Below, piece by piece: positions 33,928 through 50,036 of a stretch of DNA of 52,377 nucleotides (the stretch's first letter is position 1; each line of letters starts with the position of its first letter). Source of the stretch: a virus (taxonomy: Duplodnaviria > Caudoviricetes); IMG/VR virus record IMGVR_UViG_3300032294_001087, positions 1 to 52,377 of that record; one strand, given 5' to 3'. A program made the position numbers and the translations under genes. The notes beneath the pieces were generated by a model. That model saw nothing but the letters and a program-made list of their open reading frames with translations. It had not been told where the DNA came from and ran no database searches.

Positions 33928-34560
33928 ATGTTAAGTAGGTTAGATGATATAATCTTTCCTAACCGATGTGAAGTTATAGAAATAGAAGCTTCACATCGGT
34001 ACATCTACCCCATCTTTAAAAATGGTAGTAGTAGTTTTTACGAGTATGCTCATCGGAATAACTGCAAGATATTATTAAATAATCAAATCACACGTATACC
34101 GATAGTAGATATTGTTCTGCGTGATCCTATGCAGAGATTTCTATCTGGAATTAATACCTATGTCTATAATACCAAACGTGATAACCCACAATTGGACGTA
34201 GATACTATTATATACTTTGCCGAAAAATATTTGTTTTTAAATAGACACTATGCTCCTCAACTAAGTTGGATTGTTAATTTATCCAAATATATAAACAAGA
34301 ATACCAGCTTATGCTTACATGATATGACTGTGATAAGTAAGTTTATTAATATATCAATTAAACCGGAAGAAACAAACATGCTGTCGGCTGAAGTATTAGA
34401 CCGACTAAAGAATAATTTACATAATGAAATGTATCAACGCTTAGACTATTATCTATTAGAAATGATAGGTCAGGAAGTTACATTCAGTGAGATATTAGCC
34501 TACTTACACGCTCAAGACCCAATAGCATATTCAAAATTAAAATGCACTGCCCTAGACTAG
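33928..34560 (+). CDS. Sulfotransferase-like protein (Sulfotransfer_2-like)
   Basis: IFKNGSSS (5'-PSB-like), LRDP..RF.SG (3'-PB-like) and H..PQ motifs. Confidence 0.6.
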   Translation: MLSRLDDIIFPNRCEVIEIEASHRYIYPIFKNGSSSFYEYAHRNNCKILLNNQITRIPIVDIVLRDPMQRFLSGINTYVYNTKRDNPQLDVDTIIYFAEKYLFLNRHYAPQLSWIVNLSKYINKNTSLCLHDMTVISKFINISIKPEETNMLSAEVLDRLKNNLHNEMYQRLDYYLLEMIGQEVTFSEILAYLHAQDPIAYSKLKCTALD

Positions 34561-35426
34561 AACATTTCGTTAGATTAAACTCAGATGGCACCGTCGGCCG
34601 TTGTGGCCATATGGCAAACGCACCAAGGTTTAATTCACTTGAAGAAATGGATAGAAGTATTTGGTTACACGACATTAAATTATCTATGCACAGAGACATC
34701 TGGCCTGAGGAATGTATCAGATGTAAAGAGACTGAAGCAATTAATCAAACCAGTATTAGATTGAATGCCATCGAATTTGACAAAATTCAAAAAAAATCAG
34801 ATTATCTGTCGGTGGGCGGGGTACTTGATAATATATGTAACAGCGCATGTCTGACCTGTAACGAAAATTTAAGCACACTAATTGGCGGATTAAAAAGTAA
34901 AACATATACGATTGTGGACAATTCTAGTAAATTTTGGGAGTTACCTTTGGATAGGGTAGTACACCTAGACATCAACGGTGGAGAACCTAGCTATAGTAAA
35001 AACTATAAACATATACTGGCAAACTTGCCTAAGAATATAAAAAGTATTAGACTTAATACAAACTGTAGCACAGTCTTAGAAGAACTGTGGCCGCTGTGTG
35101 AACGCGGTGTACAGATTACTGTAACAGTTAGCCTTGATGGTATCGGACCCGTGCATGACCTAGTGCGTTGGCCTATCAAATGGGACAAGTTTTATGCTAA
35201 TCTACAGCGATACATGGAAATGCCTATAAAATTAAACACTTGGACCACGGTTAGTGTGCTGAATGTAAATGACTTACCTAACATACTAGAGTTTGTTAAA
35301 CTACATAATTTAGATCACAGCTATGCGTATCTTAAAGAACCATCAGAACTGGCGGTCGAAAATAAAGATACTCCGGAGTCTCTAGCATACATACAAGAAC
35401 AAACGCGATTAAGAGGTATAGAATGA
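34542..35426 (+). CDS. Radical SAM protein with an N-terminal twitch/SPASM-like segment
   Basis: CNSACLTC (CxxxCxxC), GGEP, TN and VSLDG motifs. N-terminal C...DG.V..C...C..C. Confidence 0.85.
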   Translation: MHCPRLEHFVRLNSDGTVGRCGHMANAPRFNSLEEMDRSIWLHDIKLSMHRDIWPEECIRCKETEAINQTSIRLNAIEFDKIQKKSDYLSVGGVLDNICNSACLTCNENLSTLIGGLKSKTYTIVDNSSKFWELPLDRVVHLDINGGEPSYSKNYKHILANLPKNIKSIRLNTNCSTVLEELWPLCERGVQITVTVSLDGIGPVHDLVRWPIKWDKFYANLQRYMEMPIKLNTWTTVSVLNVNDLPNILEFVKLHNLDHSYAYLKEPSELAVENKDTPESLAYIQEQTRLRGIE

Positions 35427-35974
35427 AAGCCTATGTAGAAATAGAGTGCGAAGATTTAGATATTATCCAATCTAAAATTTACAATTTTTTATTAAATGAC
35501 ACAGATTTAATATCATCCAAGGCAAAAAATTGGCAATTTTTAGATACTGAGAAATTAATAACAAGTATACCTGAACTGGTTAAATTTTTTCTTAAAAATA
35601 AATTATATGTTCAAAATGCCTCAGTGACACTGCTTTATGAAGATTTACCATTACATGTAGATACACTACCAATGATAGCTAAAATTAATATTCCTATTAA
35701 AAATACCCAAGGCTGGGTAAATAGGTGGTATGAATATAATGAGGATATAGCTAAATTATCTAGAACAAAAAATCAATTTGATAATGAACAAGAAGATGTT
35801 AGTGAGCTAGATGAATCTAAATTAAAACTAAAATCAGAAATATATGATTTAACTAAACCTATAGTTTTCCATTCAAGAATACCACACAGTGTTATAAAAT
35901 TAACAGCAACAGAACTACCAAGAATAGTAGCAAGTTTTACTTTTGTAAACCAACCATTGGACTTGTTACAATGA
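35423..35974 (+). CDS. 2OG-Fe(II) oxygenase/cupin-like protein
   Basis: LHVD (HxD), INIPI.N and PHSV.....PR...SF motifs. Visibly AT-rich. Confidence 0.6.
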   Translation: MKAYVEIECEDLDIIQSKIYNFLLNDTDLISSKAKNWQFLDTEKLITSIPELVKFFLKNKLYVQNASVTLLYEDLPLHVDTLPMIAKINIPIKNTQGWVNRWYEYNEDIAKLSRTKNQFDNEQEDVSELDESKLKLKSEIYDLTKPIVFHSRIPHSVIKLTATELPRIVASFTFVNQPLDLLQ

Positions 35975-36462
35975 AAATAGCGATCACCGGACACAGCGCA
36001 GGTATTGGACAAGCACTTGCTAGTATATACGAAGAAAATGGTCACGAAGTGATTGGACTTAGCCGACGCAACGGATACAATATACGCAGTCTACCTAAAG
36101 TAGCCGGTATGATAGAACCTTGCGATATGTTCGTTAATAATGCACAAGTTGGCTTCGCACAAACAGAATTATTATTTGAAGTATGGCGCCGTTGGCGAGG
36201 ACAACAGAAATATATTGTAAATGTTGGTACACAGATGACTGATATGTTACTTCCACCTAAAGAGGAATGGGATGAATATATCATACAGAAAAAAGCCTTG
36301 GACTTAGCAACACAGTTGTTAGAACATCGTAGTGAGTGGCCAAGATTATTATTAGTTAGACCGGGTAGTATTGCAACACAACCAGGACAAACACTGCCAG
36401 ACTACATGGATGTCGACGAATATGCTCAAGGAGTAATAGAGTGGATAGCAAAGAATATTTAA
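35971..36462 (+). CDS. Short-chain dehydrogenase/reductase, compact
   Basis: TGHSAGIG, NNA and YIIQK (YxxxK) motifs. Confidence 0.85.
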   Translation: MKIAITGHSAGIGQALASIYEENGHEVIGLSRRNGYNIRSLPKVAGMIEPCDMFVNNAQVGFAQTELLFEVWRRWRGQQKYIVNVGTQMTDMLLPPKEEWDEYIIQKKALDLATQLLEHRSEWPRLLLVRPGSIATQPGQTLPDYMDVDEYAQGVIEWIAKNI

Positions 36463-36485
36463 TTAGTCAAAATTAGAATTTTTAC

Positions 36486-36514
36486 TTGAAAAAGTTTGAA
36501 CAAAATGTTACAAT
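36486..36514 (+). promoter_or_regulatory. Sigma70 promoter
   Basis: TTGAAA-N17-TACAAT with extended TG. Confidence 0.65.
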
Positions 36515-36586
36515 GCATAAAGATATCTATAAAAATAATGAAACAATATTTACAGAATTACGTAATTTAACAGAGGACAAATAATT

Positions 36587-37702
36587 ATGGCAAAACCATT
36601 CGATATATCAAAATTTAGAAAGTCAATTACAAAGTCTATAGATGGCTTAGGTATTGGCTTTAACGATCCAACAGATTGGATCTCAACAGGCAACTACACA
36701 TTAAACTATCTACTCAGCGGGGATTTTAACAAAGGTATTCCGATGGGTAAAGTAACTGTGTTTGCAGGTGAATCAGGGGCAGGTAAAAGTTTTATCTGTT
36801 CAGGTAATATTGTACGTCATGCACAAGAACAAGGCATCTATGTAATCTTAATTGATACAGAAAACGCACTCGACGAAGCATGGTTACACGCACTTGGTGT
36901 GGACACTAGCGAAGAAAAACTACTTAAACTTAACATGGCTATGATTGATGACGTGGCTAAAGTTATCAGTGACTTTGTTAAAGAATACAAAACATTACCT
37001 GCAGAAGAACGTCCAAAAGTATTATTTGTACTTGACTCACTAGGCATGATGTTAACTCCAACAGACGTTAATCAGTTTGAAGCAGGTGAAATGAAAGGTG
37101 ATATGGGTCGTAAACCTAAAGCACTTACAGCACTTGTACGTAACTGTGTAAACATGTTTGGTACACTAAACTTAGGCTTAGTGGCAACTAACCACACTTA
37201 CGCAAGCCAAGATATGTTTGACCCAGATGATAAAATTTCAGGTGGTCAAGGCTTTATTTACGCATCAAGTATCGTTGTAGCTATGCGCAAACTTAAACTT
37301 AAAACAGACGCTGACGGTAATAAGACTACAACAGTTAACGGTATCCGTGCTGCTTGTAAGATTATGAAAACTCGTTATGCTAAACCTTTTGAATCAGTGC
37401 AGGTAGAGATTCCATATGAAACTGGTATGAGTCCATATTCAGGTATGGTAGACATGTTAGAAGCCAAGAGCTTGCTGTCAAAAGAAGGCAACAGTTTAGT
37501 CTACAAGTTCACCGACGGCACCACTATTAAACAATTCCGTAAAGCATGGGAACGCAACGAAGATAATAGTTTAGACAAAGTTATGAAAGAACTTAGTTCT
37601 AATGCTAAATTATTAAATGTAGAATCATCAGTCATTGAAGGCAGTAACGAAGTTGAAGTAATCAAAGAGGTTAAAGTTTCTATCAAGGAGACAGCAGAAT
37701 GA
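36587..37702 (+). CDS. uvsX: RecA-like recombinase (UvsX)
   Basis: GESGAGKS, IDTENA, VLDSLG, TNHTY and SGG.G..YASS motifs. Confidence 0.95.
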   Translation: MAKPFDISKFRKSITKSIDGLGIGFNDPTDWISTGNYTLNYLLSGDFNKGIPMGKVTVFAGESGAGKSFICSGNIVRHAQEQGIYVILIDTENALDEAWLHALGVDTSEEKLLKLNMAMIDDVAKVISDFVKEYKTLPAEERPKVLFVLDSLGMMLTPTDVNQFEAGEMKGDMGRKPKALTALVRNCVNMFGTLNLGLVATNHTYASQDMFDPDDKISGGQGFIYASSIVVAMRKLKLKTDADGNKTTTVNGIRAACKIMKTRYAKPFESVQVEIPYETGMSPYSGMVDMLEAKSLLSKEGNSLVYKFTDGTTIKQFRKAWERNEDNSLDKVMKELSSNAKLLNVESSVIEGSNEVEVIKEVKVSIKETAE

Positions 37703-37941
37703 GTATTGAATTAGATGCATTAGGCGAAGTTTGGCTTACTTGTAAAGAGTATATTGCTCCTAAAGACCGCCAGGCAGCCGCAGATCACGTATTATCAATC
37801 GTAGCAGATCATAACATAGTCGAACGTGATCTCAAGGCATTTGCTGGTACAGACAGCTATCTTAAACGGGCCTTAACAGAATATCTAGGTGAAGACGAAG
37901 TTGAAGAAGCTGACTATGATGACGAGGATGAAGATTATTAA
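37699..37941 (+). CDS. Small acidic hypothetical protein
   Basis: SD AAGGAG, ATGA overlap, acidic tail. Confidence 0.75.
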   Translation: MSIELDALGEVWLTCKEYIAPKDRQAAADHVLSIVADHNIVERDLKAFAGTDSYLKRALTEYLGEDEVEEADYDDEDEDY

Positions 37942-38396
37942 TGTGGTATAGCCGCGTAGTAGCAAGTTTAGGTAGTATTCCTGATTTCATACAACATTAT
38001 GAACGGGAATTAGATGAAGCACGAAAGGAAGTGGGAGTCTATGGTAACATAGAAAAGAATCTTGCTGGCCTGCCCGGAATTACAGAACGACGTTTCAATC
38101 AGCTACAAGAGATCGAAGCAGTTCTTAATTACCTCAACATTCAGTTAAGAAAAATACGCAAGAAACACTTCCAGAAGTATCTAGAAGGATACGCTCGTGC
38201 TTTAACATCTAGAGACGCAGAAAAATATGTTGATGGTGAAGACGAAGTTATTGACTTTGAAACGATCATCAATGAAGTAGCATTATTGCGCAACAAATGG
38301 TTGGGTATTATGAAAGGTCTTGAAAGCAAGAACTTCATGCTAGGACACGTTACACGCTTAAGAACAGCTGGTATGGAGGACGCATCGATTGGCTAG
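37941..38396 (+). CDS. uvsY: Recombination mediator UvsY-like
   Basis: Helical 151 aa near uvsX, KY..Y...L...D..KYVDGE and K.L..K.F.L....RLR.AG motifs. Confidence 0.75.
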   Translation: MWYSRVVASLGSIPDFIQHYERELDEARKEVGVYGNIEKNLAGLPGITERRFNQLQEIEAVLNYLNIQLRKIRKKHFQKYLEGYARALTSRDAEKYVDGEDEVIDFETIINEVALLRNKWLGIMKGLESKNFMLGHVTRLRTAGMEDASIG

Positions 38397-39297
38397 AGAT
38401 AGTTTAAGTATTTTAGAACTCATACAACAGTACGATAACTTTTTAGAAAGTCTAAAATTTATCGCAGATATGGGATGTGGAGCAGGCAAAGATACCGAAT
38501 GGTGGGCAAATTTACTTAATAATGACGATCCACCAAAACCTTACAATTTTTCTGTTTATGCAGTAGATACTGATGCCAATAAACTTGCACAAATACCCGC
38601 AAAGAATAACATTTATAAATTCCACGATCGTTACGACAAAGAAAATTTGTTTCCGGTGCCGGTAGATTTTATATGGTCACACGATAGTCTACAATATAGT
38701 ACTGATCCATTGAATACTTTGCGTATGTGGAATAGTTATATGAACACTAATGGTATGCTGGCTATAGTCGTGCCTCAGCACACAGGTATAGAATACTACA
38801 GACAATTTAGCAAGGCCTACAACGGGTGCGTTTATCACTATACACCTTTGATGTTGATTTACATGTTGGCAGTAAATGGATTTGACTGTCGCGATGCCTA
38901 TCTTTTAAAACAATTTAATGACCCATGGATCCAAATTGCAGTTTATAAAAGCAATATAGCCCCGATGGATCCTAATACTACATCTTGGTTTGATTTAGCA
39001 GACTGCGGGTTATTACATCCTAGTATTGTGGATAGTTTAAATTCTAATGGATATATTAAACAAGAAGAAATTTGTATGCCTTGGCTTGATAAAGAGCTTT
39101 ATTTTATTGATTACATGAGTCAACGCATGGAAACACCACCAGCTACTGAAGAAACAGGAGCCATCCAGGGACAGTCAGTTGAGTCTAATCAACATATAAT
39201 TAAACAGGCTGTGGAGACCAAAGTAGGCACTCAGTTGCTGAAATCAAAGGTTATTAAAAGCAAGCCGCCGACTAGAAAGAGTTATAAAAACAAATGA
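38389..39297 (+). CDS. Class I SAM-dependent methyltransferase
   Basis: IADMGCGAG motif I, YAVD and DFIWSHDSLQY motifs. TTG start after GGAGGA. Confidence 0.8.
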   Translation: MARDSLSILELIQQYDNFLESLKFIADMGCGAGKDTEWWANLLNNDDPPKPYNFSVYAVDTDANKLAQIPAKNNIYKFHDRYDKENLFPVPVDFIWSHDSLQYSTDPLNTLRMWNSYMNTNGMLAIVVPQHTGIEYYRQFSKAYNGCVYHYTPLMLIYMLAVNGFDCRDAYLLKQFNDPWIQIAVYKSNIAPMDPNTTSWFDLADCGLLHPSIVDSLNSNGYIKQEEICMPWLDKELYFIDYMSQRMETPPATEETGAIQGQSVESNQHIIKQAVETKVGTQLLKSKVIKSKPPTRKSYKNK

Positions 39298-40046
39298 TTA
39301 ATCGTGTAGTATTAGTCACTGGTGGGTTCGATCCTTTACATTCAGGACACATAGATTATTTCCGTGCGGCCAAGAGATTGGGTGACGTCCTAGTAGTTGG
39401 AGTAAACAGCGACAGTTGGCTACGCCGTAAAAAAGGTCGAGAGTTCATGCCCAGCTACGAACGTATACAGATCATTGAAAATCTTCGTATGGTAGATCAC
39501 TGTATCTTGTTTAACGATACAGAAGATCATGCTATAGAAGCCATCCGCAATGTCAAAACCATGTACCCTAACAGTGAAATCATCTTCGCCAATGGCGGGG
39601 ATCGCACAGCTGATAATATCCCAGAGATGAGTGAGACAGACGTCAAATTTGAATTTGGTGTAGGTGGCGAAACGAAAAAGAATAGCAGTAGTTGGATCCT
39701 TGATGAATGGAAAGCACCTAAGACAGATCGCCCTTGGGGATATTATCGTGTATTACACGAAGTAATTGGAACCAAAGTTAAAGAACTCACGATTAATCCA
39801 GGGCACAGCCTAACCATGCAACGACATTATGATCGCGATGAACATTGGCATGTATCTGAAGGCCGTTGTCATGTTGATTTTGAAGACGCAACAACTGAAA
39901 GCCACGTTAAACTTAAACAGCATGATCAGTTCACGATCAAAGCAGAATGCTGGCATCGTCTACACAACCCCTATGATACCCCTTGTAAAATAGTTGAAAT
40001 CCAATACGGGATTGCCTGCGAAGAAGATGATATAGAACGCAGATAA
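39294..40046 (+). CDS. Cytidylyltransferase (TagD/RfaE-like) fused to a mannose-6-P isomerase-type cupin
   Basis: TGGFDPLHSGH, GVNSD, ANGGDR and K.NSSS motifs, then RPWG.Y...Q.H..R.EHW...H.L.N...VEIQYG..EDDIER. Confidence 0.88.
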   Translation: MINRVVLVTGGFDPLHSGHIDYFRAAKRLGDVLVVGVNSDSWLRRKKGREFMPSYERIQIIENLRMVDHCILFNDTEDHAIEAIRNVKTMYPNSEIIFANGGDRTADNIPEMSETDVKFEFGVGGETKKNSSSWILDEWKAPKTDRPWGYYRVLHEVIGTKVKELTINPGHSLTMQRHYDRDEHWHVSEGRCHVDFEDATTESHVKLKQHDQFTIKAECWHRLHNPYDTPCKIVEIQYGIACEEDDIERR

Positions 40047-40056: not shown

Positions 40057-41502
40057 ATGATGAAAAACTTACTTACAATAATTAAAGAAAATGAAGAATT
40101 AGCCGCTAATCCGCAAACTGGGCAAGTAGATCAGTTAATTAAAGATATTAAAGCCGGTGAAATTGCACCCACGGTTGTGCAGGCAGTTAGTAACTATGTA
40201 AGTAAAAAAATAGCCCAAAAACAACAGCAGTCAGCAGAACCACAAAAACAACCAGTAGCCCAACAACCCGCAGAGATAAATCCTGTAACAGAACCAGAAG
40301 TAACTCCTGATGATCAAGAAGAAAAAGATCTAGCTGAAGCAGTAGCGATGGCCATGCCAGCAGGTATTACTCTTAAACCAGATGAACTACGTAAATTTCT
40401 ATTAAAAGGTGGCTTTAAAAGCGATGAAGTTAACGATATTGTTACCTTTGCATATAGACAGACTATCGAATTGGCCTGTAAAGAAATCGCCTCGGTGAAG
40501 CTGTATAAAGCAGAAGCGGCTGATATGCTAGCACAGCTATTCTTTAAAATTCCTGGCACATTAAGTCAGCGTAATCATATAGCTAAAGTATTAACAACCA
40601 CTGGTGTACTAGATCTTAAGAAATTAACTAAACCTGGGATCGGAACATTAGATGATTTATTACTGCCAGAATATAGATCAAATCCTATAGTGGTGAACTT
40701 AAAATTAAAACTTAAATCACGCAGTGATTTCCCTACACAGGTAAGTGCTGCAAACAAAGGCGCAGGCGAAGATCTAATTACTATCTTAGGTAATCCTGTT
40801 AATAAATTAAGTCCAGGCGATTTAAATATTGCTGGTAAAGAAATTGAAATCAAAGGTATGGGTGCTAGATTAAAAGGCTTTGGCGGTACTAGTGTTTATG
40901 GTGATGCCGCACGTATCTATAAAGAGTGGGCGGGACTAATGATACAAGCCTTGGGACCTGCAGGATTAGAAGTATTAGAAGGATCGGGTGCTAGCCTTAA
41001 AACTTATCTACATTTCAGTTTAAAGAATTTAAATGCCTTAAATGATGCTGTACAAGTTAGTAAAGTACCACAACGCGGCAAGTATATTCGCATGGCATTT
41101 GAATTACTATTAGAAACACTGTACGTACAAAGCGATAGCAAGATGAGAGAAATTGTCTTACGTAGCTTTAATACAAAAACAGGTATGTTTAACGTTGAAG
41201 AATTAAGAAAGAATTGGTTTTTATTCAGTTATGAATATTATAAACTAACTACAGCTGATAAGAAAACAGGACAACAGATGCACGCTATCATGTTCTTAAA
41301 TCAAGGTGATGAAACGTATCAAATTGTCACAGATAGACAGCAGTTAGAAACTAATCTCGACAGTTATCAACTTGGTACAGACTTATTTAATTGGACCAAT
41401 CCCACAGGACAAGCACCAAAAGTAACATTAGGTAAAGAAGTTAGGGTACAACGTAAAAGAGCATCAAGAGACACACCATCAGCTGAAAGAAAAAAACGTT
41501 GA
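40057..41502 (+). CDS. Late protein with a PD-(D/E)xK nuclease-like motif
   Basis: KGAGEDLITIL...PGDLNIAGKEIEIKG, N-terminus MKNLLTIIKE. Confidence 0.5.
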   Translation: MMKNLLTIIKENEELAANPQTGQVDQLIKDIKAGEIAPTVVQAVSNYVSKKIAQKQQQSAEPQKQPVAQQPAEINPVTEPEVTPDDQEEKDLAEAVAMAMPAGITLKPDELRKFLLKGGFKSDEVNDIVTFAYRQTIELACKEIASVKLYKAEAADMLAQLFFKIPGTLSQRNHIAKVLTTTGVLDLKKLTKPGIGTLDDLLLPEYRSNPIVVNLKLKLKSRSDFPTQVSAANKGAGEDLITILGNPVNKLSPGDLNIAGKEIEIKGMGARLKGFGGTSVYGDAARIYKEWAGLMIQALGPAGLEVLEGSGASLKTYLHFSLKNLNALNDAVQVSKVPQRGKYIRMAFELLLETLYVQSDSKMREIVLRSFNTKTGMFNVEELRKNWFLFSYEYYKLTTADKKTGQQMHAIMFLNQGDETYQIVTDRQQLETNLDSYQLGTDLFNWTNPTGQAPKVTLGKEVRVQRKRASRDTPSAERKKR

Positions 41503-41527
41503 CCTTAACGTAATAATCTGTTATACT
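41499..41527 (+). promoter_or_regulatory. Sigma70 promoter
   Basis: TTGACC-N17-TATACT with extended TG. Confidence 0.8.
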
Positions 41528-41560
41528 TAAATGTAAATTCAATCACTAATGGAGTATTCA

Positions 41561-41806
41561 ATGTCTATCAAAGCTGTTAATACCGTAGAACGATATAATA
41601 TCGATAATTGCATCAAACCATTCGATGGCAATAGGTTCCAAATGATCTTAGCGGGAGCATTACGTGCCCGTGAAATTGCTAGCAAACGCACTATCGCAGA
41701 TAAAAATGGTGATCGCACCAAACACGCAAATAAACCCACAGTTGAAGCTCTTTGTGAAATTGACCAAGGTAAATTTGGTGCAGAATACTTAAACAAACTT
41801 AAATAA
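41561..41806 (+). CDS. rpoZ: RNA polymerase omega subunit homolog
   Basis: NRFQMILAGALRAREIA...KPTVEALCEIDQGK matches the omega pattern NRF.L.L.A..RAR.....KPTV.AL.EI..G. SD GGAG supports ATG 41561. Confidence 0.85.
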   Translation: MSIKAVNTVERYNIDNCIKPFDGNRFQMILAGALRAREIASKRTIADKNGDRTKHANKPTVEALCEIDQGKFGAEYLNKLK

Positions 41807-41815
41807 GGAATTATA

Positions 41816-42010
41816 ATGGCAAAAACTAACTCAAGTTTCAATCTTTCAAAAACCACTAAAAAATTAGCAGGTGGAATTCAAGATCCACACACACGTAGAA
41901 AATTTTTAGATCTGATGATTGAAGCAGAAGCCGCCCAAGCTGCCGGTAAAAATCGTAAATTTAGTGATCCAGCAACCAGTCAACGCCCTAGTAGAGAGAC
42001 AGCAACTTAA
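41816..42010 (+). CDS. Small basic hypothetical protein
   Basis: SD AAGGA, in an operon with rpoZ. Confidence 0.7.
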   Translation: MAKTNSSFNLSKTTKKLAGGIQDPHTRRKFLDLMIEAEAAQAAGKNRKFSDPATSQRPSRETAT

Positions 42011-42414
42011 TGGAAAAAAAATTATGGGATAGCATCGAACGATCGATGCTTAAAAGTCTGCCAAATGCAGCTAGAGGCTATGAACAACGGATCAGTATTC
42101 CAGAATTTACATTCTTAGGCGGTGCTAATCAACCAGATTTTGGTGATGTAACTATTTGGTTTTATGGTAAAGAAAAAACCATAGAATTAAAAAGCCTCAA
42201 GCAATACATCTTCCAATATCGAGATACTAGATTGAGTTATGAGCGAGCACTAGATGTTATGTATAAAGATCTCATGGCAGTATATGAACCCGATCGTATA
42301 CGTATAGAAATTGAATATCGTCCACGCGGCGGTATAAGTAGTAGAATGACCGTAGATAGTGATTGGGGACACCTAGGTGGCACTGATCAATTATGGCAAC
42401 ATCATAAGGACTAA
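42010..42414 (+). CDS. queF: QueF-like T-fold protein lacking the catalytic cysteine
   Basis: PEFT....[12 protein letters not shown] (QueF motif), SYE and PRGGI motifs. No Cys anywhere in the protein. Confidence 0.75.
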
Positions 42415-42415
42415 C

Positions 42416-43702
42416 ATGGATTACAAAATTAAAGATATTAGCCTAGCGGCCTGGGGACATAAAGAGATCGCTATCGCTGAAACAGAAATGCCGGGTCTTA
42501 TTTCGGTAAGAGAAGAGTATAGAGATCAACAACCACTTCGAGGTGCTCGTATAGCTGGTAGTCTACACATGACTATCCAAACAGCGGTTCTAGTAGAAAC
42601 ACTAGTGGCGTTAGGTGCTGAAGTTAGATGGAGTTCATGTAATATATTTTCAACTCAGGATCACGCCGCTGCCGCACTTGCTGATCAAGGCATACCTGTA
42701 TTTGCTTGGAAAGGTGAAACAGAAGAAGAATACTGGTGGTGTATTGAACAGACAGTCAGTGGTCCCAACGATTGGCAGCCAAATATGTTGCTAGATGACG
42801 GACATGATCTAACTTGGTGGGTACACAACAAACACCCAGATCTATTAGAAGGTATCCGTGGAGTAACAGAAGAAACCACCACTGGTATCCACAAGATCAA
42901 TGAGGCGATAAAAGACGGTAAATTCAAGCTACGTGCTATTAACGTTAATGATAGTGTAACAAAAGCTAAATTTGATAACTTGTATGGTTGCCGTGAAAGC
43001 CTAGTAGATGGCATCAAACGTGCCACTGATGTGATGATCGCAGGTAAAATCGCTGTGGTAGCAGGCTTTGGTGATGTAGGTAAAGGATCAGCCGCGGCAT
43101 TGCGAGCACTGTCAGCACAGGTATGGGTAACTGAGATCGATCCGATCTGCGCCTTACAAGCCGCAATGGAAGGCTACAAGGTAGTTACTATGGACTATGC
43201 CGCAGACAAAGCAGATATCTTTGTAACAGCCACAGGTAATATCGATGTTATCACTCGTGCGCACATGTTGAAGATGAAACACAACAGCATCGTCTGTAAC
43301 ATTGGACACTTTGACAGTGAGATCGACATTGCTGGTATACAGGATCTGGCATGGGATGAAATCAAACCGCAGGTAGATCACGTAACCTTACCTAACGGCA
43401 ATAAGATTATTATCCTAGCCAAAGGTCGACTAGTCAATCTAGGTTGTGCTACAGGCCATCCTAGTTATGTGATGTCTAATAGTTTTACAAATCAAGTATT
43501 AGCACAGATTGAAATGTTCAATAACACTGAAAATTACAATATCGGGCACTTATATCTACTACCAAAACATTTGGATGAGAAGGTTGCCCAATTACATTTG
43601 GCTAAGATTGGTGCAGAACTAACAGCCTTGACCGCTGAACAAGCCACGTATATTGGCGTTGCGGCGGAGGGTCCATATAAACCTGATAGTTATCGTTATT
43701 AA
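42416..43702 (+). CDS. ahcY: S-adenosylhomocysteine hydrolase
   Basis: [70 protein letters not shown] and GPYKP..YRY motifs. SD AAGGA supports ATG 42416. Confidence 0.98.
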
Positions 43703-43719
43703 TAGATTATTAAGTAATA

Positions 43720-43818
43720 TTATTACCTCTCGGCCACCTGGCTAAATAAAAACGTGGCTTTGATGCAACAAAATTTATTTTGTGGCATTTTTGCAACAAT
43801 TTAAAAACAGAGGAATAA
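43720..43818 (+). promoter_or_regulatory. Structured porin leader: late-like CTAAATA (43742-43748), hairpins and tandem imperfect palindromes
   Basis: ggccac/gtggct stem around CTAAATA, ttattacctct complementary to the SD region agaggaataa, GTGGC-N6-GCAACA twice. Confidence 0.5.
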
Positions 43819-43821
43819 GTA

Positions 43822-44985
43822 ATGAAAAAATCATTAATCGCAACAATGCTAGCAGGTTTGTTCGCAACATCAGCAAACGCTGGTATTGTTATCCCAGCAG
43901 GTGACTGGACACTAGACATCAACGGTAACGTTAACGCTTTTGCAAACTACACTAAAGCGCACGGTGACAATGCAATCACAGGTGGTCTAGCAGCTCGTCC
44001 AGACTCAAGAGGTGAGGACAAGGCTATGGGTATCAACACTGGCCTATTACCATCATGGTTAGGTTTCACAGGTAAGACTCGCCAAAATGATACTGATGTA
44101 GAATTCACTATCAGCTTCCAACCAAACGTAAGTGACAATTCGAGAGCAGGTGATGAACTAGCTCCACTTAATCGTCAAGCATACGTGAGTTTTGGTGATA
44201 AGTCATGGGGCTCTATCAAGTTAGGTAAAGACCTAGGTATTTTCGCTAGCGATGCTATCTTAAACGATATGACATTATTAGGCGTTGGTGCTGGTGCTGG
44301 TATCAGCGGTGCTACAACAACATTAGGTGGTATTGGTAGTGGTTACATCTATCCAGCATGGAAAGGTCAAATCGCATATACAACACCTAACTTCAACGGA
44401 TTACAAGCAACTGTTGGTATTACTAATCCAAATCAAGCAAGTGCTAATCAACTTAACCAAGATCGTTTTGGTCTAGAAGGTAAAGTATCTTACACATTTG
44501 ACACAAATGGTATCAATACTAAAGTTTGGACATCAGGTGCAAGTTACAAAGTAACACCCGCAACTGGTGCTGAATACAATGCTTGGGCGGCTGACGTTGG
44601 TGCTACAGCAACACTTGGTAAGTTTGGCCTAACTGGTTATTACTATCGAGGTGAAGGTGCTGGTACGACAACATTTGGTGCAAACGGTGTTGACGCATCG
44701 GGTCAAAGACGTGATTCAGATGGTTACTATGTCCAAGGTACATACGTATTGCCGATCAAGACAAAACTTGGTCTAGCATATGGTAAGTCAAATCTTGACA
44801 AAGCTAACAGCAGCGACAGTGCTAGCCTAGTTGACTACAACGAACGCTACACAGTTGGTGCATATCACCCACTTACTAAGCACTTAAACTTAGTAGCTGA
44901 GTATAATCGCGTTGAGTCACAGGCACACAGTGGCGCGACTAACAAGAGCGACACTATCTCAACAGGTGCTATCTTATTCTTCTAA
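43822..44985 (+). CDS. Gram-negative outer membrane porin
   Basis: Signal peptide MKKSLIATMLAGLFATSANA, RQAYV.F....WG.I.LGKD and I.YTTPNFNG motifs, amphipathic strands, C-terminal Phe. Confidence 0.9.
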   Translation: MKKSLIATMLAGLFATSANAGIVIPAGDWTLDINGNVNAFANYTKAHGDNAITGGLAARPDSRGEDKAMGINTGLLPSWLGFTGKTRQNDTDVEFTISFQPNVSDNSRAGDELAPLNRQAYVSFGDKSWGSIKLGKDLGIFASDAILNDMTLLGVGAGAGISGATTTLGGIGSGYIYPAWKGQIAYTTPNFNGLQATVGITNPNQASANQLNQDRFGLEGKVSYTFDTNGINTKVWTSGASYKVTPATGAEYNAWAADVGATATLGKFGLTGYYYRGEGAGTTTFGANGVDASGQRRDSDGYYVQGTYVLPIKTKLGLAYGKSNLDKANSSDSASLVDYNERYTVGAYHPLTKHLNLVAEYNRVESQAHSGATNKSDTISTGAILFF

Positions 44986-45011
44986 GATTGATTTCTTAGT
45001 TCGATAAAGCC

Positions 45012-45041
45012 AAAAAAAGCCTCATTTCGGTGGGGCTTTTT
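45012..45041 (+). terminator. Rho-independent terminator, possibly bidirectional
   Basis: A run, AGCCTCAT-ttcg-GTGGGGCT, T run. Confidence 0.88.
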
Positions 45042-45042
45042 C

Positions 45043-45071
45043 TTGACAAAATTTTGACTTCATGCTATAGT
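45043..45071 (+). promoter_or_regulatory. Sigma70 promoter
   Basis: TTGACA-N17-TATAGT with extended TG. Confidence 0.8.
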
Positions 45072-45310: not shown

Positions 45311-45348
45311 CGTTATAGCAGTAAATTCAACAAATATTGGAGAAATCA

Positions 45349-46380
45349 ATGTCAAAAACCGTCTTAGTGACTGGCGGTGCGGGTTTTATCGCACACCACG
45401 TTATTGAAAAAATCCTAAGAGAAACCGATTGGAATGTGGTCAGCCTAGACCGTTTAGACTTTTCAGGTAATCTTAATCGCCTAAATGATATGGCACAGGA
45501 TCTAGATCCTGAAGTACGTAAACGTGTCAAAGTAGTATTCCATGATCTGCGTGCAGAACTAAACCCAATGGTAGCCAGAGATATTGGTGATGTGAATTAT
45601 GTCCTACACTTGGCCGCTGGTAGCCATGTTGATCGTTCAATTGAATTTCCAATGGAATTCGTATTTGACAACGTAGTTGGTACAGGTCATATCTTAGAGT
45701 TCGCTCGTAAGTTAAAAAATCTAGAACGTTTCATCTACTTCTCAACAGACGAAGTATTTGGTCCAGCACCATTGGGTGTTAACTACGGTGAGCGTGATCG
45801 CTATAATTCAAGCAATCCATACTCAGCTACTAAAGCTGGTGGTGAAGAACTAGCAGTGGCATTTGAAAATACCTATAAGATGCCAATCTACATCACTCAT
45901 ACCATGAACGTATTTGGTCAACGACAACACCCAGAGAAGTTTATTCCTATGTGTATTCGTAAGGTAAACGATGGCGACACTATCACTATCCACAGTGATG
46001 CGTCGAGAACTATTCCAGGTAGTCGTTACTATATCCATGCGGCAGACGTAGCAGATGCTATGTTGTTCTTGCTGGGATTAGATGATACTAAACTAGAACC
46101 AGACTACGGTGATGCTAAATGTCCTAAGTTTAATCTAGTAGGCAAGCAAGAAATCAATAATCTACAACTAGCACAGATTATCGCTGATGCGCAAGGAAAA
46201 GAATTGAAGTACGAAATGGTTGACTTCCATAGCTCACGCCCAGGACATGACCTACGTTATGCTCTAAGCGGTGACTACATGCGCAGTTTAGGTTGGGAAC
46301 CTAAGGTAGAATTAACAGAACGTATCGGTCAAGTAGTACAATGGACGCTGGCAAATGAACGCTGGTTACGTTGCGAATAA
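45349..46380 (+). CDS. rfbB: dTDP-glucose 4,6-dehydratase-like
   Basis: TGGAGFI, HLAA.SHVDRSI, STDEVFG, PYSATK, Q.PEKFIP and RPGHDLRYA motifs. Confidence 0.9.
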   Translation: MSKTVLVTGGAGFIAHHVIEKILRETDWNVVSLDRLDFSGNLNRLNDMAQDLDPEVRKRVKVVFHDLRAELNPMVARDIGDVNYVLHLAAGSHVDRSIEFPMEFVFDNVVGTGHILEFARKLKNLERFIYFSTDEVFGPAPLGVNYGERDRYNSSNPYSATKAGGEELAVAFENTYKMPIYITHTMNVFGQRQHPEKFIPMCIRKVNDGDTITIHSDASRTIPGSRYYIHAADVADAMLFLLGLDDTKLEPDYGDAKCPKFNLVGKQEINNLQLAQIIADAQGKELKYEMVDFHSSRPGHDLRYALSGDYMRSLGWEPKVELTERIGQVVQWTLANERWLRCE

Positions 46381-46389
46381 AGGACACTT

Positions 46390-47127
46390 ATGAAAAATAT
46401 CGTATTATTAACATCAGCAGTTTATACTAACTATGGTATCTATAAACCAGCAGAACGTATCCAACAAACACTAGACACAGCTAAGAGTGCTAAGAAATAT
46501 ATTCCTGGCGCAGTAGTTATCCTAGTAGACAACAGCAAAGTTGACGTGCAGAATGATACTAGTGCAGAGTTTGAAGAACTTATTGACTTAGTTGACTATT
46601 ACATCGATAACAGCGATGATGCTGATATCCAATATTTCCATAATAATGTTGCTAACTATGATATCGGTAAGAATGCCATGGAAGCCATGGGTCTTATGAA
46701 AGCATTGACTTATATCAATGGTGACGAAGATATGAAAAAAATCATTGCTGATGCTGATCGTATTTTCAAACTCAGTGGTCGTTATCAAGTGACAGACAAG
46801 TTTGATATCACTAAGTTCAGCAACGCTAATACCAAAGACAAATATGTGTTTAAGCGAGCACAACCTAGTTGGATCAATCCAGCAGACACTGGTGTAAACA
46901 CACTATTACAAACACGTCTATGGTCATTTACTCCGGGCTTGTTGTTAGAGACCATGGATATCTATAAGAATATCATTGAAAACATGGTTAAGATGTTTAA
47001 TGAAAACAAATACATCGACAATGAACATAGTATGTCAAAATTTATTCCTAAAGATCGATTAGTTGAGTTAGAAACAGTGGGTCTTGTTGGTAACATCGCG
47101 CCAAATGGAATGATGATCATTGACTGA
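46390..47127 (+). CDS. Hypothetical protein of the sugar cluster, possibly glycosyltransferase-like
   Basis: TSA...R..QT..T..S, LVDNS and FKLSGRY motifs, SD AAGGA. Confidence 0.45.
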   Translation: MKNIVLLTSAVYTNYGIYKPAERIQQTLDTAKSAKKYIPGAVVILVDNSKVDVQNDTSAEFEELIDLVDYYIDNSDDADIQYFHNNVANYDIGKNAMEAMGLMKALTYINGDEDMKKIIADADRIFKLSGRYQVTDKFDITKFSNANTKDKYVFKRAQPSWINPADTGVNTLLQTRLWSFTPGLLLETMDIYKNIIENMVKMFNENKYIDNEHSMSKFIPKDRLVELETVGLVGNIAPNGMMIID

Positions 47128-48056
47128 TGAAAAAGGTCCTGATACTAGGTGGTAATGGTTACATTGGCAGTAGACTGCGTCAAGTCTTGCGTGAACAGCA
47201 CTTTGTAAAATCAAACGATATCTGTTGGCATGCCTACGACGAAACTAGTGATCGCAGAGATTATCATAAACTTACCCGTGAAGAACTAGCAGAGTTTGAA
47301 GTAATTATTGTCTTGGCTGGTCACAGCAGTGTACCAAGTTGCATTGGTGAACTACCGGGACCATGGTTAAACAATGTCACTAACTTCACCGACCTGTTAG
47401 ATAAAACGACAGATCAGCTGATCATCTATGCTAGTAGTGCTAGTGTCTATGGTAACAGCAAGCCCGGTGAGCGACATAAGGAAATCAATACACACTTTAC
47501 TCCTGTTAATAATTATGACGTAACCAAACATGCATTAGATCAACAGGCTATCATTGCTAACTTGCGTGGTAAACGTGTAATTGGTCTACGTTTTGGTACC
47601 GTTAATGGTTGGGCACCTAACCTACGTGTTGATGTCATGATTAACAGCATGTATCACAGTGTGCAGAGTGGTCGAGGTATACAGGTTATGAATCGCCAGA
47701 TCAGTCGTGCTATGTTAGGCATAGAAGATCTATGTCGTGCTGTATTGCGATGCATAGAACAACCAGTATCTGGTATCTACAACTTGGCCAGTTTCAACAG
47801 TACAGTGGGAGAAATCGCCCAGGCAGTCAGTCAAAAGCTGGGGGTTGCTATAGTAGACAAGGGCACAACTGCCAATGCCTATGATTTTGCTATCGATACT
47901 ACCTTATTTGAACAAACATTTGATTTTACATTTACAGAAACACCTGCTACTATAGTAGATAGTTTAATAGAAAGCTACGAACAGTCGACTCCACAGTGGA
48001 GAGACAAATACGTAATTTATAATTGGGAACGAGAAGACTTATATGGAAGACGCTAA
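47127..48056 (+). CDS. NAD-dependent epimerase/dehydratase (extended SDR)
   Basis: GGNGYIGS, YASSASVYG, YDVTK and LRFGTVNG motifs. Confidence 0.9.
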   Translation: MKKVLILGGNGYIGSRLRQVLREQHFVKSNDICWHAYDETSDRRDYHKLTREELAEFEVIIVLAGHSSVPSCIGELPGPWLNNVTNFTDLLDKTTDQLIIYASSASVYGNSKPGERHKEINTHFTPVNNYDVTKHALDQQAIIANLRGKRVIGLRFGTVNGWAPNLRVDVMINSMYHSVQSGRGIQVMNRQISRAMLGIEDLCRAVLRCIEQPVSGIYNLASFNSTVGEIAQAVSQKLGVAIVDKGTTANAYDFAIDTTLFEQTFDFTFTETPATIVDSLIESYEQSTPQWRDKYVIYNWEREDLYGRR

Positions 48057-49251
48057 ACAACTTAAAGAATGCCTTTGCTGTGGTAGTGAGAGATTAAAAC
48101 TAGTATTAGATCTTAAAGAACAGCCATTAGCTAACAGTTTTAAGAAAACATCAGAGGAAACAGAACCATATTTCCCATTACGTTTAAACATCTGCGAAGA
48201 CTGCACACATCTACAATTAAGCCATGCGGTTAATCCGGATTTATTATTTAAGAACTATCTATATGTCAGTGGCACAAGCCAAACCCTACGTGACTACTTT
48301 GATTGGTTTGCTAAAGAAACACTTACCTACGCACCAGATGCTAAGACAGTGTTAGACATCGCCTGTAACGACGGTAGTCAATTAAACAGTTTCAAAGCAC
48401 TAGGATTAAAAACCTATGGTGTTGATCCCGCAGAAAATTTACACAAACTAAGTAACGCCAATCACGAAGTAGTGTGTGATTACTTTACTGACAAATATAC
48501 ATATCATTATAAGAATAAAAACTTAGATATTATTACAGCACAGAATGTGTTCGCACACAATAGCTATCCATTAGAGTTTTTACAGCAATGTAAAGAAATC
48601 ATGAGTGATACTAGTGTGTTATTCATACAGACCAGCCAAGCAGATATGATCAAGAACAATGAGTTTGATACTATCTATCATGAACATCTGAGTTTCTTCA
48701 ATTCAAGTTCAATGTCTGCGCTAGCGACACGTGCCGGATTACATATCATCGACATACAAAAAACGCCCATCCATGGTAATAGTTATTTGTTCGTTATGTC
48801 TAAGAATCCAGGAGCGAGATCAAGCGTTCAACATCAATTAGATCAAGAACGAGAACAAGGTCTACAGGATATGAATACCTATTCGGCCTATGCTGATCGT
48901 TGCTATACTATCGTAGAAGATCTCAATGAGACTATCCAACATTATCGTGGTCTGGGATATGTCATTGCGGGCTATGGCGCCGCAGCCAAAGGCATGACAT
49001 TGATTAATTTTGGTGATGTCAACTTGGATTTCGTCATAGATGACAATCCTCTAAAACAGGGATTGTTCTGTCCTGGTAGCAACATACCAGTGGTAGGAAT
49101 TGACATGTTAGACGAATGCCAAGATGTCCAAGTAGCATTTATACCATTGGCTTGGAATTTCTTCACTGAAATCCGTAGCAAAATTAAGACCAAACGTGAC
49201 CAAGAAGGTGATGTGTTCATCAAGTATTTTCCTAAAATAAGTATCGAGTGA
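48043..49251 (+). CDS. NDP-sugar C-methyltransferase
   Basis: N-terminal CLCC..QPLAN..C..C..LQL Zn domain, DIACNDG, NVFAH, FDTIYHEHLSFF, IHG.S, GYGAAAKG, DDNPLKQG..PGS and AWNF motifs. Confidence 0.9.
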   Translation: MEDAKQLKECLCCGSERLKLVLDLKEQPLANSFKKTSEETEPYFPLRLNICEDCTHLQLSHAVNPDLLFKNYLYVSGTSQTLRDYFDWFAKETLTYAPDAKTVLDIACNDGSQLNSFKALGLKTYGVDPAENLHKLSNANHEVVCDYFTDKYTYHYKNKNLDIITAQNVFAHNSYPLEFLQQCKEIMSDTSVLFIQTSQADMIKNNEFDTIYHEHLSFFNSSSMSALATRAGLHIIDIQKTPIHGNSYLFVMSKNPGARSSVQHQLDQEREQGLQDMNTYSAYADRCYTIVEDLNETIQHYRGLGYVIAGYGAAAKGMTLINFGDVNLDFVIDDNPLKQGLFCPGSNIPVVGIDMLDECQDVQVAFIPLAWNFFTEIRSKIKTKRDQEGDVFIKYFPKISIE

Positions 49252-50036
49252 TGTCAAAAAAAACCTTAATCAGTCACTTCTATAATGAAGAGTACATGCT
49301 ACCATGGTTCCTTAACCATCACAAGCAGATATTTGATCATGGGGTAATGATTGATTATCACTCAACAGATCGTAGCCGTGAGATCATCAAGGAAATATGT
49401 CCTACCTGGGATATCGTTACAAGCCGCAATCAAGATTTCCAAGCAGATACTATTGATACAGAAGTCAATGATATCGAACGTAATATCCAAGGGTGGAAGA
49501 TCTGTCTTAACGTAACAGAACAACTAATCGGCGACTATAGTATATTAGATGACACCCCTCGCCAATTACTAGTGCCTGGCGTGTTCTTTGTTGACTGTGA
49601 TCGTGAACGCACTGTTACCTATGATTTACCACTATATGAACAAAAGACAGATGGATTTATGTTCAGCGACAATGCACAGAACTTTTTTGAGCGTCGTAGC
49701 CGTAGCCTACATAATATTCCTGTGCATTATCCAGCACAATCAACAGTCGAATGTATGGCGCCCGGACGGCACTGGAATACCTATAACACAGATAAACTAG
49801 TAACATTCTACTACGGTTGGTGCCCATTTGATCAAGGACAACTAGCACGTAAGCTACAGATACAAACGCAAATACCACTAATTGATCGCCAATTAAATCG
49901 TGGCTTTCATCATATTACAAATAAAGAAACATTAACCTATAGACTTGAAAATGAGTTTATTCCTCGTTCAAGAGATATCTCAAAGGAAATACAGCAGTAT
50001 GTCAACAAACACAAAGATTTTTCAAATATACTTTAA
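49248..50036 (+). CDS. Glycosyltransferase family 2-like protein
   Basis: YNEEYMLPWFLNHH..IFDH..MIDYHSTDRS motif. The DxD position reads NVTE. Confidence 0.65.
   Translation: MMSKKTLISHFYNEEYMLPWFLNHHKQIFDHGVMIDYHSTDRSREIIKEICPTWDIVTSRNQDFQADTIDTEVNDIERNIQGWKICLNVTEQLIGDYSILDDTPRQLLVPGVFFVDCDRERTVTYDLPLYEQKTDGFMFSDNAQNFFERRSRSLHNIPVHYPAQSTVECMAPGRHWNTYNTDKLVTFYYGWCPFDQGQLARKLQIQTQIPLIDRQLNRGFHHITNKETLTYRLENEFIPRSRDISKEIQQYVNKHKDFSNIL

Follow-up and report, generated by a model that had tools for sequence, protein, structure and literature searches.

The DNA examined here, referred to as the window, is IMG/VR virus record IMGVR_UViG_3300032294_001087 (52,377 bases; CheckV completeness, 15%; G+C content, about 39% along the whole length). 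This report concerns a row of five genes in it, which encode an omega-like RNA polymerase (RNAP) subunit, a small basic protein, a QueF-like protein, an S-adenosyl-L-homocysteine (SAH) hydrolase and a porin. Because the window also encodes a tail sheath, a tail tube, a large terminase, a gp32-like single-stranded-DNA-binding protein and a UvsX-like recombinase, its gene content identifies it as part of a large freshwater myovirus, and 52 kb at 15% completeness would correspond to a whole genome of about 350 kb, which is jumbo size. The virus probably infects Methylophilaceae, since the porin of the window points there.

The row, which lies on the plus strand, begins with a sigma-70-type promoter (41499..41527; TTGACC, a 17-nt spacer and a TG-extended TATACT; 10/12). 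The first gene encodes the omega-like (RpoZ-like) protein (41561..41806, 81 residues from the probable start; the longest open reading frame (ORF), 41549–41806, has 85). It is followed by the genes for a basic protein of 64 residues, here called SB64, which belongs to no family and keeps the motif KNRKFSDPA (41816..42010); for the QueF-like protein of 134 residues, a T-fold protein with Gly37 at the position of the catalytic cysteine (42010..42414); and for AhcY, the SAH hydrolase, of the short type and 428 residues (42416..43702, from an ATG). A leader (43703..43821) carrying two copies of GTGGCnTTnnTGCAACAA precedes the slot for an outer-membrane protein, which is filled here by a 387-residue Porin_4 protein with a signal-peptide-like N terminus and a C-terminal phenylalanine (43822..44985). 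An intrinsic-terminator-like hairpin with a U tract (45011..45045, also on the plus strand) overlaps the −35 box of the next promoter (45043–45071; TTGACA-17-TATAGT, TG, 11/12), which stands before a 57-residue gene and is kept in relatives. Gaps across the five genes are 9, −1 (a TAATG overlap), 1 and 119 nt, and AAGGA-type ribosome sites lie ahead of SB64 and AhcY. An earlier reading of this DNA (the original prediction) had listed the five genes and the first three gaps, and ORFs and family matches confirm them.

That prediction had also placed one sigma-70 promoter ahead of four coupled genes and a terminator near 45012, and both proposals hold. A promoter scan of the window found 23 sites against 18.6 ± 4.2 in shuffled sequences, which is chance level and says little by itself; the site ahead of omega is meaningful because it is kept among relatives. 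Of the distinct upstream sequences taken from relatives, 22 of 22 have a TTGAC −35 box 5′ of omega and 21 of 22 have a TATAAT/TATACT-like −10 box, mostly TG-extended, although the preceding gene differs or cannot be aligned. At the other end, a terminator scan found four sites where 4.3 were expected and did not list the 45011–45045 hairpin. Folding of 45000–45050 gave this hairpin with an energy of −15.7 kcal/mol and a z of −3.29, which none of 200 shuffles equalled; UUUUUC comes after it, and relatives have similar hairpins ahead of the next conserved promoter. The signals of a single operon (promoter, coupled genes and terminator) are present and conserved, and they predict that omega, SB64, the QueF-like gene and AhcY would be co-transcribed. 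The porin gene lies behind a conserved leader of its own, and relatives of the peroxiredoxin type described below have a terminator and a promoter directly 3′ of AhcY.

The leader is conserved ahead of different cargoes, and that of the window is near-identical to one (L019) whose cargo is a 196-residue β-barrel gene. Its two GTGGCnTTnnTGCAACAA copies are about 30 nt apart (43750–43800) and are kept before the 196-residue barrel gene in relatives; the pair is a possible regulator site. Two other candidates in the leader were rejected: a T4-type late promoter, as TATAAATA occurs twice in the window against 7.3 expected, and a sigma-54 site, TGGCATTTTTGCA, in which the GG–GC spacing was too short as judged by eye.

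The original prediction did not recognise the combination of genes from known phages. Searching 50,697 GenBank phage records bore this out: none matched omega or the porin, three matched AhcY, and the matches to the QueF-like protein were canonical QueFs only, with no more than 38% identity. To examine conservation we used IMG/VR, where all viral records compared are fragments of 5–25% completeness, and mapped the window genes onto 52 loci found with the QueF-like protein and 14 found with omega. The common backbone runs through UvsX, two small genes, a methyltransferase, a cytidylyltransferase–cupin gene, slot A, promoter–omega–SB64, slot B, the QueF-like gene (present or absent), AhcY, slot C, the 57-residue gene and sugar-nucleotide genes. 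Slot A is a hypervariable gene slot that contains unrelated or very divergent ORFs of 337–558 residues without a family; in the window it is filled by a gene of 481 residues with a basic tail and no family match (40057–41502). SB64 is the next called gene after omega in 24 of 25 omega loci. AhcY is reached in 19 omega loci, of which 10 show omega–SB64–QueF–AhcY as an uninterrupted row, three have a fatty-acid-desaturase-like gene and a hexapeptide transferase ahead of the QueF-like gene, three are missing the QueF-like gene, and three have other cassettes without it (a SAM (S-adenosylmethionine) methyltransferase, B12-binding or plain radical-SAM genes and desaturase-like genes). Two to five unrelated genes are inserted after SB64 in six of the 19. 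Slot C holds a porin (the window, L068 and the start of L066), the 196-residue outer-membrane β-barrel (seven loci), an AhpC peroxiredoxin (five loci) or nothing (L041).

We also anchored a set on AhcY, taking the best 80 of 248 viral stretches, all at least 78% identical, and running profile searches within 4 kb. This returned omega in 31, SB64 in 39 and the QueF-like protein in 17 of the 80, and tblastn placed a porin downstream in 14 loci. Omega directly adjoins AhcY in four loci (L274, L295, L300 and L301), and the order AhcY..SB64..omega occurs in three (L263, L264 and L271). The omega–SB64 head and AhcY thus appear linked beyond inheritance of one order, and the QueF-like gene and the porin are exchangeable. 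Conservation of the neighbourhood, which the original prediction had named as a check, therefore holds for the head and for AhcY, which is kept, and fails for the variable QueF-like and porin genes. Similarly, the promoter-to-terminator layout of the proposed five-gene unit was recovered, whereas the contiguous row is found in only about half of the loci and slot C may hold either of two other cargoes in place of the porin, or none. With the QueF-like gene also present in quite different places and a terminator after AhcY in the peroxiredoxin variants, a single unit of all five genes is not supported. We consider it moderately probable that the row is an early-transcribed accessory island containing a methyl-cycle sub-module, and not one multi-protein system.

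An alternative is that omega, SB64, AhcY and, where present, the QueF-like protein form a true module that selection maintains and whose members act jointly, for instance through the coupling of a remodelled RNAP to modification reactions that depend on SAM and act on transcripts, on DNA or on the polymerase itself. The adjacency of SB64 and omega would fit this idea, as would the similar sizes of their families (128 and 123 clusters), the recurrence of both near AhcY in at least four gene orders, including reversed ones, the conserved promoter that the genes have in common and their translational coupling. Set against this, 35 of the 80 AhcY loci have neither omega nor SB64 within 4 kb, as in the NrdA–NrdB–glutaredoxin–AhcY arrangement; SB64 occurs without omega in L011, L014 and L015; the cassettes of unrelated genes interrupt the row; and, with kin as close as these, part of the conserved order is inherited. 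We know of no biochemical link between omega and SAH hydrolysis. Joint action of these proteins is therefore unlikely, and the accessory island is the reading within which we consider the individual genes below.

The omega-like protein exceeds the cut-offs of both curated families by narrow margins (PF01192, 29.8 bits against 26; TIGR00690 rpoZ, 26.2 against 23.6). As a single sequence it retrieved 21 PDB matches at E ≤ 10, 20 of which are omega, and a profile of 27 members matched RNAP omega in 22 of 22 cases at E ≤ 0.01 (best, 1.1e-5). The family comprises 123 clusters at 90% identity, of 54–89 residues, all metagenome-derived, and within the searches made it is viral only. No report of a phage-encoded omega was found in the literature searched, and a term search of the Melnitz OM43-phage paper did not show one. 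The start of the protein is probably the second ATG (41561), because a GGAG six nucleotides ahead of it is kept in relatives and the first ATG is replaced by ACG in L041. Identity is 37–41% to omegas of Methylophilaceae-type genomes (found in four of five genomes) and 29–45% to those of genomes from the same phylum (94 of 201 matched), values that argue against a recent cellular donor.

Comparison with cellular RpoZ identifies both the shared core and the point of departure. The core NRF..L..A..RAR ... KP..AL.EI..G aligns to solved omegas, and the phage protein is near the size of the host omega core. It differs from RpoZ in being virus-encoded without a close donor, in lacking the host-like acidic C-terminal tail and in its context, as SB64 follows it whereas cellular genes have the order gmk–rpoZ. 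The N terminus differs as well. Host omega, whose gene follows gmk, starts with MARITVDDC, whereas phage omegas have a variable lead of 5–12 residues followed by (V/I)E(R/K/T/V)(Y/V), in which the glutamate is invariant. In the family pattern ..NTVERYNIDNC this residue is E14, and it aligns to Ala2–Arg3 of Escherichia coli omega. According to one study, omega residues 2–5 coordinate the phosphates of guanosine tetraphosphate (ppGpp) at site 1 (PMC7676912), and the proteobacterial MAR start that these residues belong to is absent from phage omega. Given the N-terminal extension of 8–12 residues and the invariant glutamate where the host has its MAR start, site 1 would probably be altered or lost. 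Phage omega would displace host omega on β′, bind there and weaken or abolish ppGpp site 1, so that transcription may continue in a starved host.

Phages are known to redirect host RNAP by sigma factors, by small binding proteins and by covalent modification. Two further proteins share the aim of controlling the host enzyme, gp39 of phage P23-45 (PMC3950348), a small phage product, and GafA, which binds omega in RcGTA (PMC9638019); both are unrelated binders, whereas phage omega is a homologue of a core subunit.

The omega-like protein might instead be a subunit of a multisubunit RNAP encoded by the phage itself, in the manner of jumbo phages, some of which carry their own polymerases. The suggested genome size would suit such a virus. 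The domains Rpb2_6 and Rpb1_2 were, however, absent at E ≤ 0.1 from the window and four overlapping related records (9–25% complete), the omega gene itself lies behind a strongly conserved sigma-70-type promoter, and T4-like replication and recombination genes are present. To our knowledge, jumbo-phage polymerases have no omega. We regard this origin as very improbable and retain a replacement of host omega as the predicted role.

SB64 belongs to a family of 128 clusters without a Pfam family. Its structure model has two helices (residues 12–19 and 24–45) and a tail, with a predicted local distance difference test (pLDDT) score of 75. A fold search with the model gave no PDB match at E ≤ 0.001, the Atlas gave no usable match for SB64, and none of the curated family models match the sequence. 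A predicted complex of omega-family and SB64-family members scored 0.02 against a mark of 0.32, which counts neither for nor against an interaction.

The QueF-like protein matches PF14489 at 65.4 bits and TIGR03139 at 79.2 bits, under the equivalog cut-off of 86.9. Its match to QueF in the PDB (E 1.3e-13) assigns it to the T-fold, and a model of a subfamily member (P0369, pLDDT 80.7) has Bacillus subtilis QueF as its best structural match (4fgc/4f8b, E 1.4e-9, TM 0.76). Aligned to B. subtilis QueF, it has Gly37 in place of Cys55, Ser-Tyr in place of Phe95-His96 and Ala in place of Cys99. It keeps equivalents of Asp62, Glu78 and Glu97 and a motif for reduced nicotinamide adenine dinucleotide phosphate (NADPH), ELKSLKQY, which deviates once, with Q at the seventh place, from the QueF motif E(S/L)K(S/A)hK(L/Y)(Y/F/W). 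The glycine and the Ser-Tyr-Glu triplet are invariant in 28 members without the cysteine, and the Cys-less motif occurs in 52 of 52 loci of the first set and 64 of 64 of a distant marine clade (116/116). The family has 1,258 clusters at 90% identity, and for many of these a source gives the name 7-cyano-7-deazaguanine reductase; motif rules applied to the best 150 of 1,144 representatives at 50% identity gave 65 Cys-less, 56 canonical and 29 unclassed sequences, the last mostly fragments. Longer representatives with Lar, FliM or PMSR parts are probably gene-call chimeras and were set aside as uninformative. Annotation of the Cys-less proteins as 7-cyano-7-deazaguanine (preQ0) reductases is very unlikely to be correct, because the nucleophile is missing. 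In the study from which the residue roles are taken, C55A and C55S QueF were inactive (PMC13740343). Archaeal QueF-L, which keeps the cysteine, provides a comparison with the reverse pattern: the QueF-like protein has lost the cysteine and retained the NADPH-type motif, whereas QueF-L, as described in another paper, has no NADPH-dependent reduction (PMC10516641).

The neighbours of the Cys-less gene point to methyl metabolism. Within the 6 kb fetched for the first set, AhcY and/or MetK lie in 49 of 52 loci (AhcY in 25, a MetK-cluster gene in 23 others, and L049), one member of each MetK cluster having been checked by Pfam; the remaining three (L017, L047 and L048) have neither in the fetched stretch. 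The arrangements include QueF–AhcY, MetK–QueF–AhcY (L043–046, L051 and L296), QueF–MetK–AhcY (L053/054, 55% identity) and MetK-x-x-exonuclease-exonuclease-x-QueF-PTPS/QueD-like. MetK was found in none of five window-type records and AhcY in none of five MetK-type records, all of them fragments. We infer that the QueF-like protein works with the methyl cycle. Without its nucleophile it would not reduce preQ0; with its NADPH motif and its residues for a 2-amino-4-oxo-pyrimidine ring, it may use NADPH to reduce a compound of the pterin or deazaguanine type.

Several observations accompany this gene elsewhere. The PTPS/QueD-family protein of the MetK-type contigs (about 186 residues; cluster c5, 14 loci, for example L024:3549-4109) matches over residues 7–184 against a profile of 121 positions, an apparent insert, and scores under both NCBIfam cut-offs; a DUF3307 gene comes next after it. 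Twelve loci in the distant clade (L140, L146, L151–153, L157, L166, L167, L171, L177, L129 and L137) encode, at or near the QueF-like gene, a DUF2452 protein about 140 residues long. Cys-less QueF-like genes also occur on three IMG/VR contigs labelled as giant-virus metagenome-assembled genomes (L173, L174 and L178), one with MetK 3 kb away.

The fold and family of the QueF-like protein raise the alternative that it and AhcY serve a 7-deazaguanine (preQ-type) modification of DNA or tRNA, with AhcY clearing the SAH left by base methylation, as for mdPreQ1. The PTPS/QueD-family gene next to it in MetK-type contigs could be taken in the same sense, and phages that modify DNA with QueF and a preQ1 methyltransferase are described in PMC10516641. 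The same source also reports that the known phage QueFs retain the family residues and complement a queF mutant, whereas here an invariant glycine occupies the place of a cysteine whose replacement abolishes activity, His96 is replaced by tyrosine, and the score is under the NCBIfam equivalog cut-off. The gene is linked to MetK and AhcY and does not lie beside queC, queE or dpdA. tRNA-guanine transglycosylase (TGT)/DpdA was absent from the window and five related records, and QueC from those five, all fragments of 10–25% completeness. A part in deazaguanine modification is thus quite improbable, and partnership with the methyl cycle is the function that we favour for this gene.

AhcY itself is intact and is assigned firmly, with 610.2 bits against a cut-off of 497.6 for TIGR00936 and matches to PF05221 and PF00670. 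Its longest ORF begins at a GTG (42377), and the family models match from residues 1–3 of the ATG form (42416). The short-type phage enzyme lacks a stretch of about 37 residues that is inserted in the host form. In a quick, narrowly sampled tree of 43 rows, with the insert columns trimmed (among them the 25 best short-type rows of 138 matching genomes and four Methylophilaceae), the clade of the window AhcY, joined by L044 (SH-like approximate likelihood ratio test, SH-aLRT, 98), has Methylophilaceae and L053 as its sister group (95). We had considered a donor unrelated to the host, given the insert and 74%-identical short forms elsewhere in the phylum, and dropped it because the tree puts the phage clade beside Methylophilaceae with an SH-aLRT of 95. 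AhcY has an obvious task, because the window encodes SAM methyltransferases (38389–39297 and 48043–49251) and a radical-SAM enzyme (34542–35426): by clearing SAH it would keep the many SAM-dependent phage enzymes encoded nearby uninhibited. In other viral contexts AhcY follows NrdA–NrdB–glutaredoxin and an ORF of about 150 residues (L248, L253, L256, L276, L285, L286, L297 and L251), and the QueF-like gene is inserted ahead of AhcY in L251/L252.

The presumed hosts have metK, ahcY and metF in a row, with the gene for methylenetetrahydrofolate reductase (MetF) 7 nt after ahcY in four of four genomes and metK confirmed in G001 (L104). The phage contigs resemble this row in having MetK beside AhcY and one further gene, and the phage AhcY groups with that of Methylophilaceae in this sample; they differ in that the third gene is the QueF-like gene and not metF, and in the missing AhcY insert. 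Among 218 viral sequences, none contained a host-type MetF. A bolder reading takes the island to carry two undescribed takeover devices. In the first, omega would make RNAP blind to ppGpp at site 1 and thereby free transcription in starved, slow-growing methylotrophs. In the second, the QueF-like protein would substitute for MetF as an NADPH-dependent T-fold reductase that converts 5,10-methylene-tetrahydrofolate to 5-methyl-tetrahydrofolate, so that MetK, the QueF-like protein and AhcY would reproduce the methyl cycle of the host in viral form. Such chemistry would be plausible: in its second half-reaction QueF reduces, without involving the cysteine, an imine beside the oxo group of a 2-amino-4-oxo-pyrimidine ring, and the N5 iminium of methylene-tetrahydrofolate would occupy the same place. 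We offer the pair of devices as a bold and rather unlikely reading, not as a result.

The porin matches PF13609 (Porin_4) at 91.8 bits against a cut-off of 27 over residues 8–367, and its N terminus, MKKSLIATMLAGLFATSANA, is signal-peptide-like and its end reads ..ILFF, both as judged by eye. The nearest cellular relatives are Methylophilaceae, with 57–63% identity. A tree with 12 phage rows and 30 cellular rows requires at least three placements for the phage porins. The window porin belongs to a clade of seven (support 99) that is sister to small-genome Methylophilaceae, a second phage clade of four (support 100) lies among Methylotenera- and Methylophilus-type rows, and both are located after AhcY; by this tree, host porins have been captured into the same slot at least twice. 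In a more distant phage group (L241, L259 and L261) AhcY, a porin and a PstS-like binding protein (PBP_like_2) form a row, and because a PstS-type protein follows the porin there, a role in uptake fits. During infection the porin would be produced as an outer-membrane channel of host origin, serving uptake or altering the cell surface. Lambdoid prophages also encode porins (Lc and NmpC), and cyanophages carry nutrient-uptake genes such as pstS. The present case resembles these in that a virus carries a general porin of host type, with PstS next to it in some relatives; it differs in that the virus is a large lytic-type myovirus, the protein is of the Porin_4 family from Methylophilaceae, and the slot, filled by at least two captures, alternatively holds a small outer-membrane barrel or a peroxiredoxin. 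On the question of unrelated donors, which had been raised at the outset, the genes differ in kind: the porin and, in a limited sample, AhcY group with Methylophilaceae, whereas omega has no close donor and the QueF-like protein belongs to a subfamily that was found here on viral contigs.

The flanks of the island (34542–40046 and 45337–50036) consist of sugar-nucleotide and SAM-dependent genes. They encode a twitch-domain radical-SAM protein, a methyltransferase and a cytidylyltransferase–cupin fusion, as well as three epimerases/dehydratases, a C-methyltransferase and a glycosyltransferase-like protein. No Rfam family matched at the gathering threshold, which leaves no SAH, SAM or preQ1 riboswitch, and a tRNA scan found none. 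PADLOC matched no family among six proteins. In PHROGs the QueF-like protein alone had a match (phrog_5949, named 'GTP cyclohydrolase'), and omega, SB64, AhcY and the porin had none.

Taken as an accessory island, the row would work as follows. Host sigma-70 RNAP would read the conserved promoter and produce a message in which omega, SB64, the QueF-like gene and AhcY are translationally coupled; the porin would follow behind its own conserved leader, and the hairpin would end the unit. The island would then consist of a fixed head (promoter, omega and SB64) and a fixed AhcY, with swap slots between and after them. A number of points weigh against this reading. Co-transcription of the four genes is predicted from sequence only, as are the functions of omega and the QueF-like protein; omega scores barely exceed the family cut-offs, and its binding to β′ is a prediction. 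The link between the Cys-less subfamily and the methyl cycle is a minority feature of the distant marine clade: 6 of its 64 loci (L143, L149, L154, L156, L160 and L173) have MetK or AhcY no more than 5 kb away, the AhcY there forms a clade apart from that of the window, and the other neighbours are varied and include DUF2452, ClpP, sugar enzymes and PhoH. That omega, SB64 and AhcY stay close through rearrangements hints at more than accidental co-location. Most of the related loci are close kin, at 70–96% identity, and the counts given above do not represent independent events; all viral records being fragments, DpdA, MetK or a phage RNAP may lie elsewhere in these genomes.

Two components of the island deserve follow-up, the family of viral omegas and the QueF-like subfamily without the cysteine. 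If phage omega does enter the host enzyme, it would offer a direct way to study the escape of phages from the stringent response in starved oligotrophs, and the recurrence of the QueF-like protein beside MetK and AhcY suggests a function for this subfamily that can be tested. That host porins have been captured repeatedly into a single slot suggests strong selection for remodelling of the outer membrane by phages of abundant freshwater methylotrophs.

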